64,000 bases of DNA from Asaia bogorensis (lineage in GTDB: Bacteria; Pseudomonadota; Alphaproteobacteria; CACIAM-22H2), in NCBI GenBank assembly GCA_945901855.1, contig CAMDLT010000020.1, forward strand, positions 2,066 through 66,065. The letters run 5' to 3'. The position numbers and the translations under genes are program-made. The notes beneath the pieces were generated by a model. It had not been told where the DNA came from and made no database searches. It saw nothing but the letters and a program-made list of their open reading frames with translations. The first letter of the stretch is position 1. Each line of letters opens with the position of its first letter. This document shows positions 7,528 through 35,320 of the stretch, in pieces.

Positions 7528-9218
<1,691 letters not shown>

Positions 9219-25999: not shown

Positions 26000-26413
26000 T
26001 TACGGCGAAGATTTAACCGGTACGGCGCTGAATGCAGGCGCCTCGGAGCACTCGGTCACGCCGCCCAGCGTGCGGATGCATCGATAGCGCGCATTGGGAT
26101 CGATTTTGGCGACCGGAAACTCGGGTTCGTTGAAGCGCGCCATTTGTTCGCAGATCAGACGTCGGTCGCCGGTTAAGAACATACCGTCGCAGCGTCCCGG
26201 CAAAAAATTCGGTCCGACTAAAATCGCGGCGCCAACCACGCCCGGCGTCACGATGCTTTGCACGTAAGGGGCAGCAAACGTGCTGACTTTGTCAGGTACC
26301 TTCGATAGCGGAGGGCTGCCGTGAACCGAAGGCAGTTTGGTGCAAGCCGCCGCGAATAGGGCAGCGCCAGCGACTAAACAAACGATCCGAATGGAGCGAT
26401 TTATCTTCAACAT
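26000..26413 (-). CDS. Secreted protein / possible lipoprotein, unknown function.
   Basis: 137 aa. N-terminus MLKINRSIRIVCLVAGAALFAAAC with a Cys after the hydrophobic stretch (weak lipobox). Preceded by a very AT-rich upstream region (26414-26466). Confidence 0.5.
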   Translation of the reverse strand: MLKINRSIRIVCLVAGAALFAAACTKLPSVHGSPPLSKVPDKVSTFAAPYVQSIVTPGVVGAAILVGPNFLPGRCDGMFLTGDRRLICEQMARFNEPEFPVAKIDPNARYRCIRTLGGVTECSEAPAFSAVPVKSSP

Positions 26414-26466: not shown

Positions 26467-27246
26467 TCAAGATTCCCGTCGATAATCATCCAAATCTCTG
26501 AAGAATCTGGAAAAAGCCGATGCCGGTGTCACACCGGTAGCAGCCTCGAAGCGCACAACTTCTTGGAGCGTAAGCCGCTTCACGGGGGCAAAAAGCGTAT
26601 CGAAGATCGCCAAGAAATCGCTTTTGGCGAACTGAGCAACATCGAGACCATCGCCGATTTGGACATATTTGTTGGGGGCAAGGCCGATCGATGTCTGCTT
26701 GTGCTGCATGATGCGAAAGAACCATTCGCGGCGCGTGTCGAAGCGCTGGAACGATTGCGCAATCCGCACGAGCGTCAACCAGAAAATCGTCTGGGCGCGC
26801 GGATCCGAATAAAACGCGTCCCAACCAAAATCGTCGCCGCCTTTGTCGCGCGTTTCCTCCAGCACTTGCGCACAGGCGGCGTTCCATTCGCCTTCTCTCT
26901 CGCCGACCAATGCCTGGACGAAGAAAAAGAAATTGTGGAGCAGACTGCGGTCGAGCTGCGCGGACGCAAAAAAATCGTCAAGCGGATGCACGATCAAACG
27001 GCCGAACGCATTGACGCGACGATGCTGGTTCTGCGACTGGGCAATTGCCGCAACGATTTGGACGAAGACGGCGCGGTAGAAATTTTCGACTTCGCCGGCG
27101 TTTTTCATCGCATCGCCGATACGCGCGAGCTCGTCGTGGCCGACAGTACCGCCGTTTTTTGCGGCGGTTTCCTGGGCGGTCTTCACGAATGCGTCGAGCA
27201 TCGTGGTTGCCGCATGTCGGATCAGTTGGGGGCCTTTTGAAAACAT
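26467..27246 (-). CDS. Hypothetical protein, 259 aa, Trp/Phe-rich, no recognisable domain.
   Basis: I chose the minus strand over the codon-aligned plus-strand ORF 26440..27240 because the plus-strand translation is Arg/Glu-skewed in the way antisense shadows typically are. The strand call is uncertain. Confidence 0.45.
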   Translation of the reverse strand: MFSKGPQLIRHAATTMLDAFVKTAQETAAKNGGTVGHDELARIGDAMKNAGEVENFYRAVFVQIVAAIAQSQNQHRRVNAFGRLIVHPLDDFFASAQLDRSLLHNFFFFVQALVGEREGEWNAACAQVLEETRDKGGDDFGWDAFYSDPRAQTIFWLTLVRIAQSFQRFDTRREWFFRIMQHKQTSIGLAPNKYVQIGDGLDVAQFAKSDFLAIFDTLFAPVKRLTLQEVVRFEAATGVTPASAFSRFFRDLDDYRRES

Positions 27247-27351: not shown

Positions 27352-28026
27352 ATGTTGGAAATCAAACCAGTCGAAACGTCGGGTGGAATCGCTGTTCTGG
27401 ATGTCGGCGGCGACAAAGCGGGCCAAGCGACTCTTATTTGGGCCGACGACAATTTCTGCGAGGCGTTCGAAGGCGCGACCGTCGGCGCCGCCCCGTTCGG
27501 TGCGGACGCTGACCCGCAAGTGACGGCGGCCTTGGAGGGGTTGAAGCAGGGGGCTGTGGCACGTTTCGATGCGCCGACGGGCACGCTGTTTGGGCATCGT
27601 CTGGAAAGCGCCATCGGCATTGTCGGGCTGGGCGGCAAGCGTGTGCTGCTGGCGCTGGCAACCGCCCCGCAGATGCTGGGCCACACGGCCGATGCGCGTC
27701 TGGCCGAAACGCTCGACGCCGTGCCGGTCGCCGCGAGCATGATCAAAACGAGCGACGGGACGATTTTGTGGCTCAACGAAAATTTTCGGGAGTTGCTGGA
27801 CGGCAGCGAGTTCGATCTTCTGGGAACGTCGTTGGCCGACCATTTTGTGCTGCCCGGCGTATTTGCAACGCTGATGTCGGCAACAGACGCGATTGCGCCC
27901 TCCACGCCTGTCCCAACGCCCCTAAAGACGCTGTCCGGCATCATGACGCCGGTCGTTGCGACTGCAAAACGTATACGGTTTCGCGGTCACGACGCGGCGC
28001 TGGTGTGCCTGGCCAGCGGGTTTTAG
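27352..28026 (+). CDS. Stand-alone PAS-domain protein (two PAS-like halves, no output domain).
   Basis: 224 aa. The second half (ASMIKTSDGTILWLNENFRELLDGSEFDLLGTSLADHF) has the PAS-core pattern. The first half is more weakly PAS-like. No TM segment and no kinase, GGDEF or HTH domain. Confidence 0.5.
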   Translation: MLEIKPVETSGGIAVLDVGGDKAGQATLIWADDNFCEAFEGATVGAAPFGADADPQVTAALEGLKQGAVARFDAPTGTLFGHRLESAIGIVGLGGKRVLLALATAPQMLGHTADARLAETLDAVPVAASMIKTSDGTILWLNENFRELLDGSEFDLLGTSLADHFVLPGVFATLMSATDAIAPSTPVPTPLKTLSGIMTPVVATAKRIRFRGHDAALVCLASGF

Positions 28027-28034
28027 CGCGGGTT

Positions 28035-29105
28035 CTAGATCCCGGATTTGCGCGCGGCTTCTTCGAGTTCGTCGATCATCTGCATGCCCGGGACGACCTC
28101 CGAGCGCACGAACTCGAGGCGCTTGTTGGGGCCGCCGCTGGCGGTTGGAAACCGGTCGCGCCATAGCTGCATTTTGACCGACAGCCCGCAGAGCACGCCG
28201 CCGATCGAGCGGTGGTTCGAGAACACCATATCCTTCATGCGGCTGAAGCTGTCGGCGTTGATATCTTTCCAGAAATCGGCGCTCTTGCGGTTAAAAGCTT
28301 CGAACCGGCCCGTCAACGAGATGATCACGCCCGACATCGAATCTCGGGTCTTGTCCAGCATCTGCTTGGACATGCGATCGCCCTTGATCATCTGGTTGTC
28401 GTCGAGCGGCTTGACCCAGTCGAGAAAACTTTGGACCTGGGGCACGACCTTGTCGAGGCACGAGCGGAAATAGGCCAGCGACAAAAACGTATCGCCGTAA
28501 TCTTCGAGGAAGCGCGGAATTTCGGTCAGCGGCACGTTCAGCTTTTGGGACATCATGCGCAGATTCTTGAGCGCATCGTCGCGATTGGGCGCGGTGAGCA
28601 GCTTCATGATGTCCGAAACGTCGTTCACCTCGAAATCCGCCGTGCCGTAGATCTGCTGTATCAACGGATGGGTAAACACCTTCATGTGTTGCGTAAGTTC
28701 TTGGCGTTTGCCTTCCGAAAGCTGCAATTCCTTGTTGACGTCGATATTGAGAGAGAGCGAACGCAGCGCAACGCGCAGCGTGTAGACGTCGAAAGACGGA
28801 ATGGCGCTCAGATTTTGCAGCAGCGGCATGTCCTTGCGCAGTTCGGTCGCACAGCTTTGGAAAACGCTGTGCAATGCGTCGAGGGGAACTTGCGCCGATT
28901 TGTGGCCTTGGTATTTGTAGAGTTCGACAACCGAATCGAGCCGCACGTTCTTTATGAGACGCAGCCTGCGCAACCCCGGCGTTTCGAGCGGGATAATGCT
29001 GAGGGGCAAGATATGAAGCGCATCTTGACCCTCCGCATCGTATTCGGCATTGGCAGCTTCGCCTGAAGCAGGCGTCGGACCATCGATCTTGGTGCTTTGT
29101 TCCAT
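28035..29105 (-). CDS. Hypothetical cytoplasmic protein, 356 aa; no recognisable domain; co-oriented directly downstream of the cheZ-like gene.
   Basis: Long ORF with protein-like composition. GC is lower here (about 57%) than in the flanks. 78-nt spacer to the cheZ-like gene on the same strand. Confidence 0.6.
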   Translation of the reverse strand: MEQSTKIDGPTPASGEAANAEYDAEGQDALHILPLSIIPLETPGLRRLRLIKNVRLDSVVELYKYQGHKSAQVPLDALHSVFQSCATELRKDMPLLQNLSAIPSFDVYTLRVALRSLSLNIDVNKELQLSEGKRQELTQHMKVFTHPLIQQIYGTADFEVNDVSDIMKLLTAPNRDDALKNLRMMSQKLNVPLTEIPRFLEDYGDTFLSLAYFRSCLDKVVPQVQSFLDWVKPLDDNQMIKGDRMSKQMLDKTRDSMSGVIISLTGRFEAFNRKSADFWKDINADSFSRMKDMVFSNHRSIGGVLCGLSVKMQLWRDRFPTASGGPNKRLEFVRSEVVPGMQMIDELEEAARKSGI

Positions 29106-29182
29106 GTTGAGCGCTTTTTACGCCGTAAGAGCCGTCAATACCAGCCCCGATCTTGGTCTGCGGTTGTTGGCGCGTCCGCGCA

Positions 29183-30076
29183 TCAGTCGAAAAGCTTGTC
29201 AATATCCGCCTGCGACGCCGTCGCGCCAGCAGTGGCGGGCGCGGGAGAGGGCGGCGCTGGCGGCGGCGTAGCTTGTTTGGCAGCTGCCGGGGGCGGGGCG
29301 GGCGCTGGGGCGGGTGTCGGCGGTGCTATGGGTGCGGGTGCGTCAAACCCTGCACCGGCCAACAGCGCGTCGATCTCATCTTGCGTGCGGCCTTGGCCGG
29401 GCATAGCCGGTCCATTCAACAGATGCGCATCGCCGCGGGTGTCGGCATTTGCATCGCGTTTTGCAACGCCGCCCGGCAGATTCTCGGCGCCCCAAATTTC
29501 GACCATCGCGTTGACGCGCTGGTCGATATAGCGAAGCGTGCTGACGACTTTGGAGATGCGCTGGCCGGTAATATCTTGGAACGAGCAGGCCGTAAAAATC
29601 TCGGTTGCTTGGTCGCTCAGCACCTGGCCTGCTTCGGCGCATTCGGTCGGAAGATTTCCGGCAACTTCCATAATGCGCTCGGCTGCATTGAGAATATCCG
29701 AGGTCGCGCGCTCGGTCGAAGCCACGATCATGTCGAGCTCGCTGGTCGCGCTGTTGATGCGGTTGTCGGTAACGGCGAGTTTCGGGTCCTTGTTGTAGAT
29801 CGAAGCGATTTCGGATTTTGCGGCCTGGATATGGGCGGCCATGCTTTGCAATTCGGCACGCAGCACATCGATGCTCTGGGTTTCCTTGGCACTCGACATT
29901 TGCTTGATCGTCCACTCGCGGAACGAGGCGGCGATGCGCCGCGCTTCGTCGAGCGCCACTACGCGCGAGCGCACGTCGCGGGCGCGCAAGAAGGCGCGGC
30001 CGCGCGTGCTGTTCAACAGCGCGTCCTCGATGGCGAAATATTCTTCGTCCGAAAGTTCGATCTTCGTCATTGGCAA
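29183..30076 (-). CDS. cheZ: CheZ-family CheY-P phosphatase homolog; orphan.
   Basis: The C-terminal half carries CheZ hallmarks: FTACSFQDITGQRISKV (the catalytic-Q FQDLTGQ motif), LLNGPAMPGQ (compare LLNGPQ) and a terminal DEIDALLAGAGFD (compare E. coli DDLLDSLGF). A Pro/Ala-rich linker lies near the C-terminus. Confidence 0.75.
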   Translation of the reverse strand: MPMTKIELSDEEYFAIEDALLNSTRGRAFLRARDVRSRVVALDEARRIAASFREWTIKQMSSAKETQSIDVLRAELQSMAAHIQAAKSEIASIYNKDPKLAVTDNRINSATSELDMIVASTERATSDILNAAERIMEVAGNLPTECAEAGQVLSDQATEIFTACSFQDITGQRISKVVSTLRYIDQRVNAMVEIWGAENLPGGVAKRDANADTRGDAHLLNGPAMPGQGRTQDEIDALLAGAGFDAPAPIAPPTPAPAPAPPPAAAKQATPPPAPPSPAPATAGATASQADIDKLFD

Positions 30077-30134
30077 CCTGCAGATAAAAGATGTGGCGTG
30101 ACGCGCAAGCTAGTCGGAATTGGCTAAGAACGGG

Positions 30135-31277
30135 TTAAAGTTTGCCCTCGATGGCGGCTCTGAAAATTCGCTCAAGGTCGCCATGCTCGACTTTGCAGGG
30201 ATTGCCGCCTGCCGACGGATCGGCCGCCGCCATCGCCCCGATTTCGGCCGCCCGCGACGTATCGATCCCCAGCATGGCGAGCGTGGGGGGAATTTTCAAC
30301 AGGTCGCGAAACTGCAAGACCCAAGCAAAGACCGTATCGAAATCGGCGCGCGGCAAATCGAGGGAACGCGACAAGTTCGGCATACGCGCGGCGATCGCAG
30401 CGCGATTGTGGCGCATGACATAAGGCAGCAAAATAGCGTTGGTCAGACCGTGATGCGTGTCGTAGACGGCACCGATCGGATGGGCAAGCGCGTGGACGGC
30501 GCCAAGCCCCTTTTGGAAGGCGACGGCACCCATGCTGGCGGCGGCCAGCATCTGCGCGCGCGCTTCGATGTCGGCGCCGTTGGCGACAGCGCGTGGCAGA
30601 AACTCTTTCACCAGGCGCATGCCTTCGAGCGCGATGCCATCGGCCATGGGATGGAATCCGGGCGCGCAATAGGCCTCGAAGCAATGCACGAACGCGTCGA
30701 CGCCCGTCGCGGCCGTCATATGCGCAGGCAGGCCAATGCTCAGTTCCGGATCGGCGATCACGATGCCGGGCATCATTTGTGGGTGAAAAATGATTTTTTT
30801 GACGTGCGCCGCCTCGTCGGTAATGACCGAAGCACGTCCGACTTCGGAGCCCGTGCCGGCGGTTGTCGGCACCGCGACGACCGGCACCATCGCGGCCGGA
30901 TCGACGCGCTTGAAATTATCGCCGACATCCTCGAAGTCCCAGAGCGGCCGCGTCTGGCGGGCCATCAGCGCGATGGCCTTCGCCGCATCGAGGCCCGATC
31001 CGCCGCCAAACGCGATAACGCCGTCATGCGCGCCCGCGCGCAAGGCCGCGACGCCGTCGGCAACGTTGGTACCCGTCGGGTTGCCGCGGACTTTGGCAAA
31101 AAGCGTCGCGCCCGAGAGGGCCAGCGCTTTTGCTACCATCGGCGTCGATGCAAGTCCTGCATCCGTGACCAGCAGCGCATTGGCAATGTGCAGGCGCTTG
31201 AGCGCTGCGGGCAATTCGTCCAACCGACCTGGCCCCGACCAGATTGTCGTGGGGTAGTTCCAATTGCCCTTTACCAT
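30135..31277 (-). CDS. Iron-containing (group III) alcohol dehydrogenase.
   Basis: 380 aa with the Fe-ADH family pattern (GGGSGLDAAKAIA, ...VAVPTTAGTGSE..., metal-binding His residues). Confidence 0.85.
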   Translation of the reverse strand: MVKGNWNYPTTIWSGPGRLDELPAALKRLHIANALLVTDAGLASTPMVAKALALSGATLFAKVRGNPTGTNVADGVAALRAGAHDGVIAFGGGSGLDAAKAIALMARQTRPLWDFEDVGDNFKRVDPAAMVPVVAVPTTAGTGSEVGRASVITDEAAHVKKIIFHPQMMPGIVIADPELSIGLPAHMTAATGVDAFVHCFEAYCAPGFHPMADGIALEGMRLVKEFLPRAVANGADIEARAQMLAAASMGAVAFQKGLGAVHALAHPIGAVYDTHHGLTNAILLPYVMRHNRAAIAARMPNLSRSLDLPRADFDTVFAWVLQFRDLLKIPPTLAMLGIDTSRAAEIGAMAAADPSAGGNPCKVEHGDLERIFRAAIEGKL

Positions 31278-31291
31278 CGCAGCCGCCCGCC

Positions 31292-32740
31292 TCAGATGAT
31301 TTCGAAATAGCGCTGCAGCTGCCAGTCGCTGATCGCTTTATTCGCCTCACGCTGTTCCCAGTCGCGGCTGGCGGCATAATGCGCGACGAATGGTTCGCCG
31401 AACAGGTCTTTGGCGACCGACGAGGCGGCCAATCGCGTCGCAGCTTCGCCCAACGTGCGCGGCAACTGCAATTCGGGCGGCGGAACCAGATCGTAGGCGT
31501 TGCCGACGACCGGGGCCGTCGGTTCGATCTTGTGCTCGATACCCCACAGTCCGGACCCAAGGGCCGCAGCAAGTGCGATGTAGGGATTGATATCGGCCGC
31601 GGCGACCCGGTATTCGACGCGCTGCGACTTCGGCGCGCCGGGGATTGCGCGTAGCGCCGTGGTGCGATTGTCGATGCCCCACAGCGCCGCTGTCGGGGCC
31701 CAGAAACCGGGGACAAGTCGCGTGTAGGAATTTACCGTGCAGGCCACCATGGCGAGCAACTCGGGCATCAGCTTTTGCTGGCCGCCGATGAAGTGGCGCA
31801 TCGTATCTGAAATGCCATGCGGCTTGGTTTCGTCGTGAAAGACGGGCCCACCGGCCGCGTTCTGCAGCGACAAATGCAGATGGCCCGACTGGCCCGGCCA
31901 GTCGTGCGACCATTTCGCCATGAATGTTGCCATACGATTTTGGCGTTGGGCGAAAACCTTGGCGAAGGTTTTGAACAAAGCGGCTTTGTCTGCGGCGGCG
32001 ACGATATCGTCGTAGAGCAGCGCCGCCTCGAGCACGCCCGCGCCCGTCTCGGTGTGCAGGCCTTCGATCGGCACGTCCATCGCGCGCATCGTGTCGAGCA
32101 GCGCGTGATAGAATTCCGCATGCACGGAACTGCGCAGCATCGAATAGCCAAAAGACCCGGGCGTAAGAGTCTTCAGGCCGCGATAGTTTTTCTCGCGCAC
32201 CGATACGGGCGTTTCCTCGAACACAAAGAATTCGAATTCCGCGGCTGCTTTGGCAGCAAGCCCCATGTCGGCCGCGCGCTGGACGACGCGCCGCAACGTG
32301 CCGCGCGGACAAACGGTTTCAGCCCGACCCGCAAATTCGGCCAGAAAAAGCAAGGTTGACGGCTCGAACGGGACCGCGCGGCAAGTCTCGGGCAGCACGC
32401 GAACCGGCGCGTCGGGATAGGCGGTGTGCCAGCCCGTGTATGTCGCGCAATCGTAAAGCTGGTCGTTCGAATCCCAGCCAAGCACAACGTCGCAAAATCC
32501 GAATCCGGTCTGCAGCACGGAGCGGAATTTCTCGCGCGACAGATATTTGCCGCGCATGACTCCGTCGATATCGAACAGACCGACTTTCACATTGTCGATT
32601 TTGCGCGCGTCCAGCAGGGCGGCGGCTTGTTCGGCAGTTTTGACGTCGCGGGGTCCGGTTGCGGGCTCCCGGTCGCCGGCCAGATCAGGCGGCACGGCGC
32701 AGATCCAGTCGGCTCCAGACATCAACCAGCGCCTCGACAA
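31292..32740 (-). CDS. Glutamine synthetase-family ligase (GlnA-like type; gamma-glutamyl-amine synthetase PuuA/GlnT-like).
   Basis: About 470 aa with GS catalytic-domain motifs. The annotated 5' end overlaps the hemA 3' end by 56 nt. The true start may be an internal GTG/ATG. Confidence 0.75.
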
Positions 32741-33902
32741 GCTGATCCATCAGCCCATCGTCGTGGAAGGGGGTGGCGGTCAAACGCAGCCGTTGCGTGC
32801 CGCGCGGCACGGTCGGGAAATTGATCGGCTGGACATAGATCGATTTTCGCATCAGCAGTTCGTCGCTCGCCTGTTTGGCGAGGCGCGCGTCGCCGACGAG
32901 CAACGGCACGATGTGCGTGGCCGACGGCATCACCGGCAGTCCTGCTTGGACCAGCAACCGCTTGAGGCGTTCGGCGCGTTCGGCCAGTTTGGCGCGCGCG
33001 GCTTGGTCGCTTTTGAGATGGCGGATGGCGGCACGCGCACCGGCTGCCACGACCGGCGGCATCGAGCTCGAGAAAATGAAGCCGGGGGCCGTGCTGCGGA
33101 CAGCATCGCACAAAGCCGTCGAAGCCGCGATATAGCCGCCGACCACGCCAAAGCCCTTGGCGAGCGTGCCTTGCACAATGTCGAGGCGCGCTTGCGCGCC
33201 ATCGCGTTCGGCAATGCCGGCGCCGCGCGCGCCGTAAAGACCGACCGCATGCACTTCGTCGAGATACGTCATCGCATCGTATTTTTCGGCGAGGTCGCAA
33301 AACGCGTGGATCGGCGAAACGTCGCCGTCCATCGAATAGACGCTCTCGAACGCGATCAGCTTTGGGCGCGACGGTTCGATCGATTGGAGCTGGGCTTCGA
33401 GATCGGCCGCATCGTTGTGGCGAAAGACGAGTTTGTCCGCGCCCGAATGGCGAATGCCTTCGATCATCGAGGCGTGGTTGAGCGCATCGGACAAGATCAC
33501 GACGCCTGGCAGCAGCCGCCCGATCGCCGACAAAGCCGCCTCGTTGGCGTTGTAGCCGGAACTGAACACCAAGGCCGCCGGCTTGGCATGCAGATCGGCC
33601 AGTTCGCGCTCGAGCAAAACATGCTGGTGGTTGGTACCGGAGATGTTGCGCGTTCCGCCCGCACCGGCCCCGTTCGCGACGAGCGCCGCCTGCATGGCGG
33701 CAAGCGTGTCGGGATGCTGGCCCATGCCCAGATAGTCGTTCGAGCACCATACGACGATGTCGCGCGGTCCCTCCGGCGAATGCCAAGTCGCATGCGGAAA
33801 GGCGCCGCATTTGCGCTCGAGATCCGCAAACACGCGGTAGCGGCCTTCGGCCTTCAAAGCGCCGATGGTGTCGGAAAAATAGCGTTCATAGTCGCGTCGC
33901 AT
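32685..33902 (-). CDS. hemA: 5-aminolevulinate synthase (alpha-oxoamine synthase family, C4 haem pathway).
   Basis: 405 aa. Near-colinear similarity to Rhodobacter HemA: ...[17 protein letters not shown].....[16 protein letters not shown].....[13 protein letters not shown]...ELADLH...[10 protein letters not shown]...[17 protein letters not shown]. Confidence 0.85.
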
Positions 33903-33922
33903 CGCCCCAGTCCCCCGAAATG

Positions 33923-35320
33923 TCAGTCAAAAAAACCTTTGGCGCGCGCAACTTCTGCACCCTCGGCAAGGCCCTTGGCAAAGCGCGCGAACAATTCATC
34001 TATCCCCGCCTCGTCGATAATCAATGGCGGGCACACCGCCACGCGATTGTCGAAGAGGCCGCGCACCATCAGCCCGTTGGCTTCGCAGGCTTTGGCGATC
34101 AAGGGGGCGACGGCTTGGCTTGGCTCGAACATCGTCTTGGTCGTTTTGTCTTTGGCAAGCTGCAGGCTGCCAATCAGCCCCACACCCGTGGCATGACCGA
34201 CGATCGGATGGTCGGCGAGTTTTTGGAGCGCGGCTTGGAAGCGCGGCGCTACGCGCCGGACATGGCCGACGATGTCGCGCTCTTCGTAGATGGCCAGCGT
34301 TTCGAGCGCGACAGCGGCAGGCACAGGGTGAGCCGTATAGGTGTAACCGTGCCCGAAAGTACCGATCTTCGCGCTGTTGGCCTGCATGGCCGCATAGATC
34401 GGCTCTGAAATCAGCACGGCCGAGATCGGCAAGTACGCCGACGACAGCGCTTTGGCGCAGGTCAAAATATCGGGCACGATGCCGTAAGTCTGGCTGCCCC
34501 ACATGTTGCCAGTGCGCCCGAAGCCGCAAATGACCTCGTCGGCGACCAGCAAGATGCCGTATTTTTTGAGTACGGCTTGGATCTTCGGGAAATAGCCCGC
34601 GGGCGGCACGATGACGCCGCCGGCCCCCATGACGGGCTCGGCAAACATCGCAATGATGGTTTCGGGATCTTCGGCCAAAATCAGTTTTTCGAGATTTTCG
34701 GCGAGCCGCGTCGAATACTGTTCCTCGGTTTCGCCCGGCAATCCGCCGCGATAGAAATCCGGCGTTTCCGCGTAAGCGACCGGGAAGATTGGTAGGTCAA
34801 AGTCTTTTTGATTTGCCGGAAGTTTGGTGAGCGATGCGGCCGCGATCGTCACGCCGTGATATGCCTTCTCTCGGCTCAAGATTTTTTTGCGCCTGGGCGT
34901 GCCCGCCGCGTTCGCGATGTACCAAAGAATCTTGATTGCCGTGTCGTTGGCTTCCGATCCCGAGTTGGCGAAGAAGACCTTCGACATGGGCACGGGCGCA
35001 AGTTCTTTGAGCTTTTCGGCAAGTGCGATGCCCGGCTCGTGCGACTTGCCGGCGAAGATATGGTAAAACGGCAATTGCCGCATTTGCTTGTGCGCAGCAT
35101 CCGCCAGGCGCGCCTCGTCGAAGCCAAGAGAAGCGCACCACAGGCCCGCCAAGCCCTCGATATAGGTCTTGCCATTGTCGTCGACGACATAGATGCCATG
35201 GCCCTTCGCCATGATGACTGGCCCATCGCTCTCGTGGGCGCGGAGATTCGTGTAGGGATGCACGAGCGCTGCAATGTCGCGCGCTGCCAGCGAGTTGCCG
35301 CGTGGGCGTAAGTCGTTCAT
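33923..35320 (-). CDS. Class-III (omega) aminotransferase, PLP-dependent (SpuC / beta-alanine-pyruvate transaminase-like).
   Basis: 465 aa. [19 protein letters not shown] and the Lys-containing TCAKALSS pattern. First gene of a minus-strand string that also contains hemA, the GS-like ligase and the Fe-ADH. Confidence 0.85.

Follow-up and report, generated by a model that had tools for sequence, protein, structure and literature searches.

The window analysed here, a stretch of 64,000 nucleotides from Asaia bogorensis (assembly GCA_945901855.1, contig CAMDLT010000020.1, positions 2,066 to 66,065 of the forward strand), carries on its minus strand a cheZ gene (29183-30070) followed downstream by a gene for a 356-aa protein, designated X (28035-29105). 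The two genes are co-oriented, as the original prediction had described them, and the spacer between them measured 77 nt (29106-29182) instead of the 78 nt given there; neither a terminator nor a sigma-70 promoter was detected in this spacer, which is without a terminator-like site on the minus strand. The cheZ open reading frame (ORF) listed mechanically ran from 29183 to 30076 with a TTG start; the true start was placed at the ATG at 30070 because the sequence (ttgccaATGacgaag) and the N-termini of homologues (MSKIELSDDEY...) favour it, which gives a product of 295 aa. This cheZ adds one more gene to a known family; the novelty lies in the recurrent cheZ-X unit, X being a protein without known family or fold.

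The assignment of the upstream gene to the CheZ family, made originally from its motifs, was confirmed. Pfam CheZ (PF04344) matched residues 146-244 of the window protein with 59 bits (gathering cut-off 30.7, E 8e-16), whereas the enteric equivalogs NCBIfam NF008368 and NF041271 were not reached (42.1 vs. 257 and 17.7 vs. 350 bits, respectively). Escherichia coli CheZ (1KMI chain Z) was retrieved by phmmer with FQDITGQ of the window protein aligned to FQDLTGQ and LLNGP (residues 217-221 in the 295-aa numbering) aligned to LLNGP, and TQDEIDALLAGAGF aligned with the E. coli C-terminal CheY-binding peptide. The active-site stretch ACSFQDITGQ (29561-29590, minus strand, residues 161-170) includes AxxFQ and the catalytic DxxxQ (D166 and Q170), motifs whose roles in CheZ have been described (PMC7750401, PMC8563088), and it was unchanged throughout 40 CheZ homologues. 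The corresponding catalytic residues of Azorhizobium caulinodans CheZ are D165 and Q169 (PMC8563088, PMC7750401). More than 1,200 homologues of the window type were found, many of them carrying the CheZ name, the nearest (P0271) being 98% identical and likewise 295 aa long. With this number of homologues, and with the Azorhizobium protein characterised (PMC7750401, PMC8563088), the original statement that CheZ is often absent from Alphaproteobacteria proved to be overstated. The window protein shares with E. coli CheZ the Pfam domain, both active-site motifs, LLNGP and a C-terminal CheY-binding peptide; it differs from the E. coli and Azorhizobium proteins in an N-terminal region (RGRAFLR) conserved only within its own subfamily and in a doubled CheY-binding-like peptide with a Pro/Ala linker between the copies. 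On these sequence criteria the window protein belongs to the CheZ family, as a Rhodospirillales subtype outside the enteric equivalog, and is a predicted CheY-P phosphatase.

The AlphaFold2 (AF2) monomer of the window CheZ reached a mean predicted local distance difference test score (pLDDT) of 69 and a predicted template modelling score (pTM) of 0.31. Helices were predicted at residues 22-93, 99-138, and 142-193, the last two of which carry the active site with pLDDT up to 94, and the predicted secondary structure agrees with a CheZ architecture in which an N-terminal helix precedes a long hairpin, followed by a linker and by helices at the C-terminus. The single C-terminal CheY-binding helix of the original prediction was found as a predicted helical peptide present in two copies. 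It is the first, TQDEIDALL (29360-29386, minus strand, residues 229-237; AF2 helix 230-238), to which the C-terminal peptide of the E. coli protein aligned; the second, SQADIDKLF (29189-29215, minus strand, residues 286-294; AF2 helix 287-294), forms the C-terminus past the Pro/Ala-rich linker.

Such repeated peptides, of the form [ST]Q-x-[DE]-[IV]-D-x-[LM]-[FL] and separated by Pro/Ala linkers, are a trait of this CheZ subtype, with two copies in 92 of 120 homologues. CheZ proteins of Azospirillum had four to five copies and the short CheZ proteins of che operons had one (39 of 41). Judged from their sequence, the repeats may form a multivalent device for the capture of phosphorylated CheY (CheY-P); no mention of them was found in the CheZ literature consulted for comparison. 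Chromosome 1 of Azospirillum sp. B2RO_4 (L086 7521-10040) presented cheY followed by two tandem cheZ genes, a long one (8001-9104) encoding 367 aa with five peptide repeats and a short one encoding 241 aa that stops right past the first peptide. In Azospirillum sp. B4 (L056 15343-18003), a PAS-PAS-HisKA-HATPase-REC-Hpt hybrid kinase gene located 4.3 kb from the X gene encodes a weakly CheZ-like C-terminal segment (Pfam CheZ E 1.4e-4; clade hidden Markov model E 8e-35), and the product may be a kinase-CheZ fusion.

Protein X starts with ATG and has a predicted mass of 40 kDa and an isoelectric point of 6.3; it is predicted to be soluble, the maximum 19-residue hydropathy being 0.84. In agreement with the original prediction, it could be placed in no described family: searches of Pfam, NCBIfam, PHROGs, PADLOC and PDB sequences (with the single sequence, and with a profile for PDB) returned no match, and Pfam at E ≤ 10 over 45 members of the family returned nothing, PilZ included. 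The AF2 model built from 45 homologues (pLDDT 78.8, pTM 0.75) consists of a disordered segment at residues 1-22, four short strands between residues 32 and 74, and a helical bundle for the remainder, and no significant sequence or structure match to a described family or solved fold was obtained. The DUF3150 label on one NCBI homologue was not reproduced by Pfam, and a remote homology of X to CheZ itself was rejected (hhalign probability 0.3%). Longer members of the family contained no additional Pfam domain and no natural fusions were found; two long ORFs in metagenome loci, considered as fusions, turned out to be a frameshift artefact and an over-extended start. The literature search found no publication on X.

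X belongs to an unannotated alphaproteobacterial family, defined here by full-length homology (about 330-370 aa) plus two hallmark motifs. The first motif, PRFLEDYGDTFLSLAYF (28467-28517, minus strand, residues 197-213), was conserved among 68 diverse members and used as a search pattern; in the second, GGVLCGLSVKMQLW (28161-28202, minus strand, residues 302-315), the Cys, Lys and Trp are nearly invariant family-wide. The family patterns P-x-F-L-E-x-Y-G-D-x-F-L-S-L-A-Y-[YF] and L-C-G-L-x-V-K-M-x-x-W-x-x-x-F-P both occur in the window protein (residues 197-213 and 302-319, respectively). Homologues numbered 980 with the window protein as query and 1,226 with a distant member as query; the profile search yielded 528 clusters at 50% identity, and 236 full-length representatives fell into about 70 sub-clusters at roughly 42% identity. 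Named carriers are Azospirillum, Niveispirillum, Nitrospirillum, Aerophototrophica, Indioceanicola and Tagaea (Rhodospirillales), as well as Rhizomicrobium, and the family is so far restricted to Alphaproteobacteria. The window X and an X from a che operon, aligned over 343 aa with a single gap, are 37% identical (E 6e-89), and their homology is clear.

The neighbourhood of X was surveyed first in a scan of 530 species genomes with an X relative, the best 80 of which were examined. In the Tagaea-type loci (17, together with L001 and L002), cheZ lay directly upstream of X and a PAS gene lay convergent downstream of it in 19 of 19 cases, most of them with cheW and a cheA-cheW-REC hybrid gene beside the PAS gene. 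For the remaining 63 loci among the best 80 of 530, cheZ was found within 10 kb only in Aerophototrophica, where it is convergent to X at 1.3 kb with a pentapeptide-repeat gene between the two. A pairing that is merely synteny at the level of Tagaea (19 loci with it, about 60 Azospirillaceae without it) was considered, and it was overturned by the sampling of distant members. The X gene P0262, whose product is about 32% identical to the window protein, starts 1 nt past cheZ at the end of a cheA-REC-cheB-cheR-cheY-cheZ operon.

Among the 487 relatives retrieved by a metagenome scan seeded on P0262, 80 loci (35-43% identity to P0262) were retained; the scan ran on the narrower alignment (A4), the diverse alignment (A3) being too divergent. 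The ORFs of these loci were searched with chemotaxis and flagellar proteins and, once the availability of flanking sequence was considered, 67 loci were informative. cheZ was directly upstream of X on the same strand in 39 of the 67, a proportion that is not an unbiased frequency because the seed is itself che-linked; in six it was convergent downstream, and in 22 it was missing. Between same-strand cheZ and X the gap was never below -4 or above +34 nt, an ATGA overlap or a distance of 2-6 nt being the usual case, and convergent cheZ lay within about 130 nt of X in five of its six loci. X occupied the tail of full che operons, usually in the order MCP-cheW-cheA-REC-cheB-cheR-cheY-cheZ-X (MCP, methyl-accepting chemotaxis protein), or formed an orphan cheY-cheZ-X trio. 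At least eight clusters at 70% identity contained cheZ-linked loci, and in the distant L091 lineage X also follows cheZ directly.

On a neighbour-joining tree of X, the cheZ-X state appeared on the branches of the window, P0262, L114, L174, and L158 and in a Rhizomicrobium-like clade, and the convergent state in the L112 group, a pattern most simply read as an old cheZ-X linkage that was lost repeatedly. The window pair, in the same way, is most simply read as a piece of this old arrangement retained after the other che genes left the locus. Among che genes X tracks cheZ rather than the others, though not always: L158 has an orphan cheY-cheZ-X trio with an ATGA overlap and no further che gene nearby, in the L112 group a convergent cheZ-cheY unit alone faces X, and the Tagaea type has cheZ-X without cheY. 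L142, for its part, has cheB-cheR-X without cheZ.

The explanation that we favour, with a probability of about 0.55 as a whole, is that the window encodes a CheZ of functional type and, in X, a chemotaxis or motility accessory protein acting with it. The window CheZ would be a dimeric helical-hairpin phosphatase that strips the phosphoryl group from CheY-P by means of D166 and Q170, its C-terminal peptides (two in this protein) capturing CheY-P. X, predicted to be cytoplasmic and to consist of a short N-terminal disordered segment, a small beta unit and an all-helical bundle, would act with CheZ in terminating CheY-P signalling, by binding the phosphatase and positioning or tuning it. Tight or overlapping gene coupling, together with a gap in the literature on CheZ, suggests that X may bind CheZ and place or tune it, and we infer that cheZ and X are co-transcribed and that their products are in contact, with an effect on CheZ. 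The literature gap concerns the way in which CheZ is placed in the cell. Work on Azorhizobium described an alphaproteobacterial CheZ without sites for CheA-short or CheA binding, polar independently of CheA and of other chemotaxis and flagellar proteins, and reported its localisation partner as unknown, the authors suspecting further partner proteins (PMC7750401).

Several observations weigh against this explanation. About 60 Azospirillaceae genomes carry X without a cheZ neighbour, and in the metagenome set, whose bias towards che-linked loci was indicated above, the 22 of 67 informative loci without cheZ include many with X between truA and fmt. No che context surrounded X in the deep clades of P0145, P0131, P0249 and P0196. 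In Azospirillum sp. B2RO_4 the cheY-cheZ-cheZ genes are 350 kb from X, and other relatives of the window CheZ occur as cheY-cheZ pairs without X. The genes of the window itself are separated by the 77-nt spacer instead of overlapping, and Foldseek of the CheZ monomer model (pLDDT 69) against PDB did not recover 1KMI. From the unlinked deep clades and the truA/fmt loci it follows, therefore, that linkage to cheZ characterises a sizeable minority of deep lineages and not all of them; the contigs of two further deep clusters, P0265 and P0171, were too short for their context to be judged. Away from cheZ, X had HSP20-DUF1150 upstream in Azospirillum (one group with an MCP-PilZ gene downstream), a GAF kinase and ExoD as neighbours in Nitrospirillum, and UPF0093 and PBP1A in Niveispirillum, and in other deep lineages it stood alone amid housekeeping genes. 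The original prediction of a conserved cheZ neighbour thus stood in part. The adjacency was found in the 39 metagenome loci, L091 and all 19 Tagaea-type loci, and in convergent form in six loci and Aerophototrophica, but X is also widespread without cheZ (the Azospirillaceae, the 22 metagenome loci and the four deep clades); to that extent the census of homologues found what the prediction itself had named as evidence against it, a partner common without a cheZ neighbour.

The same distribution is what would be expected if the adjacency of cheZ and X were an inherited gene order without any functional tie, X having an unrelated role, since most of the sampled deep clades and nearly all Azospirillaceae hold X in unrelated contexts. 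A mirror-tree analysis of 27 loci is relevant here: X co-diverged with CheZ, CheY, CheR, and CheB alike (r 0.91-0.95), and the partial correlation between X and CheZ was only 0.12, with nothing specific to CheZ beyond the operon. This confirmed that X is co-inherited with the che operon and adds to the points against the favoured explanation; distances that follow the whole operon are those predicted by plain vertical co-inheritance. However, the pairing survives at 31-37% identity, across architectures and orientations and often with stop/start overlap, X has a second and independent motility context in Azospirillum, and the chance that a random gene adjoins cheZ, in a genome of several thousand genes with one or two cheZ copies, is by our estimate of the order of 0.1% per lineage. 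We regard an inherited order without a functional tie as quite unlikely.

The second motility context was revealed by tblastn of plasmids, in which a second X paralogue of Azospirillum was found on 11 large replicons. In A. brasilense Sp7, A. lipoferum 4B and Azospirillum sp. B510, this paralogue is the last gene of a flagellin-flaF-flbT-hypothetical-DUF1217-X series within the flagellar cluster, co-oriented and 38-40 nt past the DUF1217 gene. Recurrent adjacency to cheZ and this flagellar paralogue, taken together, therefore indicated that X is a family linked to motility and chemotaxis. They leave room for X as a general flagellar, motor or cell-pole factor, its gene housed in whichever motility operon suits, that could act on the switch complex, on the control of flagellar assembly or on polar organisation. 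Such a role would agree with the position of the paralogue after the DUF1217 gene, with the many lineages in which X stands alone, with the cheB-cheR-X arrangement of L142 and with the lack of a CheZ-specific signal in the mirror-tree. It does not account for the fact that che-linked X nearly always adjoins cheZ itself, even where other che genes are missing (the window, L158) or where just a cheZ-cheY unit faces it (the L112 group), and no flagellar gene turned up near X when the 80 metagenome loci were searched with flagellar proteins. For these reasons we consider the general factor unlikely, and an accessory that acts with CheZ remains the preferred reading.

Coordinates of the flagellar arrangement, in which a 130-aa hypothetical protein gene, the DUF1217 gene and the X paralogue follow flagellin-flaF-flbT, were 7687-9993 in L095, 7699-10017 in L096 and 3144-5505 in L177; the three genes could constitute a conserved tail of the Azospirillum flagellar operon.

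In che operons of the Rhizomicrobium type, X is followed (L100 8887-13567) by genes for a REC protein, a GAF-HisKA-HATPase-REC hybrid kinase, a REC-LuxR regulator and a minimal HisKA-HATPase kinase. The minimal kinase has 235-258 aa and is also found directly after X in L091 (7049-7756).

It is conceivable, although highly improbable, that X belongs functionally with these downstream two-component genes and not with cheZ. The module follows X in many che-linked loci, a minimal kinase gene comes directly after X in L091, and signalling genes also border X elsewhere, with a GAF kinase divergent from it in Nitrospirillum and a GAF-PAS cyclase gene before it in L146. However, the link between cheZ and X is present without the module in L158 and L174, as well as in the Tagaea type and the L112 group.

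Auxiliary proteins that direct or tune a CheY-P phosphatase are known from other bacteria. The closest likeness is with ChePep and CheZ(HP) of Helicobacter and other Epsilonproteobacteria, in which a lineage-restricted and otherwise unrecognisable protein steers the site of a remote CheZ (PMC3143842; PMC7750401), a role like the one that we propose for X. The two showed no relation in sequence, X being a compact helical protein of 350 aa with no Pfam match; moreover, the link between ChePep and CheZ is experimental, whereas that between X and CheZ is proposed from gene order. In enteric bacteria, CheA-short recruits CheZ to the signalling cluster and makes it more effective, and it offers a functional analogy for X as a CheZ partner. 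CheA-short is, however, a product of cheA itself, and the window is without cheA, as alphaproteobacterial CheZ is without the binding sites (PMC7750401). PlzC of Vibrio cholerae (PMC12799141) resembles the proposed X in being a small protein distinct from the CheY-P phosphatase whose activity, and with it the turning frequency, it tunes, but it is a PilZ-domain receptor of cyclic dimeric GMP that acts on CheX and not on CheZ, and no PilZ match was obtained among the 45 X members searched.

Chemotaxis is among the best-mapped signalling pathways of bacteria, yet the placement and control of CheZ outside the enterics are largely unknown, and X is a concrete and testable candidate for the unidentified CheZ partner in Alphaproteobacteria. 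A stronger form of the proposal, possible but doubtful, is that X is this missing partner: a component of new fold, produced in step with CheZ, whose binding to CheZ would determine the site and strength of CheY-P dephosphorylation. In Azospirillum a duplicate would have been recruited to the second flagellar system, which is plasmid-borne. Should the link be true, X would be an extra component of the che operon in the annotation of hundreds of genomes in which it now reads "hypothetical protein," and it could be addressed in genetically tractable and agriculturally relevant bacteria such as Azospirillum.

Upstream of cheZ, a TTAA-N7-TTAG box (TTAACCCGTTCTTAG, 30124-30138, minus strand) lies 54-68 nt 5' of the ATG. 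The box recurred at -57 to -74 in 14 of 19 related loci, with a fifteenth at -104, in a spacer otherwise diverged, the background of the pattern in related loci being 0.012 per kb. It was present at the equivalent place in L001, L006-L017, and L022; L019-L021 were without it and had a GCTATAAT element instead. The first half of the window box overlaps the stop codon of the upstream Fe-alcohol dehydrogenase gene. We take the box to resemble the CtrA box of Alphaproteobacteria and regard it as a candidate for a promoter or a regulator site of that type, which suggests that the cheZ-X pair may be under a control region of its own. The 400 nt upstream of standalone X genes, searched in 154 loci, contained no CtrA-like box.

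Beyond the pair, 32 chemotaxis and flagellar query proteins matched only cheZ and the PAS gene in the whole 64-kb window, with no cheA or cheW, so that cheZ is isolated from other che genes there, as had been stated originally. The PAS-like protein of 224 aa (27352-28026, plus strand), identified from weak PAS matches and from synteny, is encoded convergently to X. Its position is kept in all Tagaea-type loci, in most of which its gene closes a cheA(hybrid)-cheW-PAS operon. The cheA of these relatives encodes an Hpt-kinase-CheW-REC hybrid, and cheA-cheW-PAS is convergent to X (L001 11882-15096). In the window, as in the three relatives closest to it (L006, L007, and L012), cheA and cheW are replaced by two genes without family match: those of the window, both on the minus strand, encode a 259-aa protein (26467-27246) and a 137-aa protein (26000-26413) whose N-terminus resembles a lipoprotein signal (...LFAAAC).

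On the other side, cheZ is adjoined upstream by a metabolic block on the same strand (30135-35320, minus) whose synteny is kept in relatives and which includes genes for an Fe-alcohol dehydrogenase, a glutamine-synthetase-like protein, a class I/II aminotransferase, and a class III aminotransferase. The block looks like an amine or polyamine utilisation cluster with no relation to chemotaxis. In L001 an aldehyde dehydrogenase gene lies between the glutamine-synthetase-like and Fe-alcohol dehydrogenase genes, and the window has no space for one. G+C content varied from 58 to 66% over the 64 kb, and the nearest DNA to the window was that of metagenome-assembled genomes labelled Tagaea or Telmatospirillum (Rhodospirillales), with about 80% nucleotide identity over 11-12 kb.

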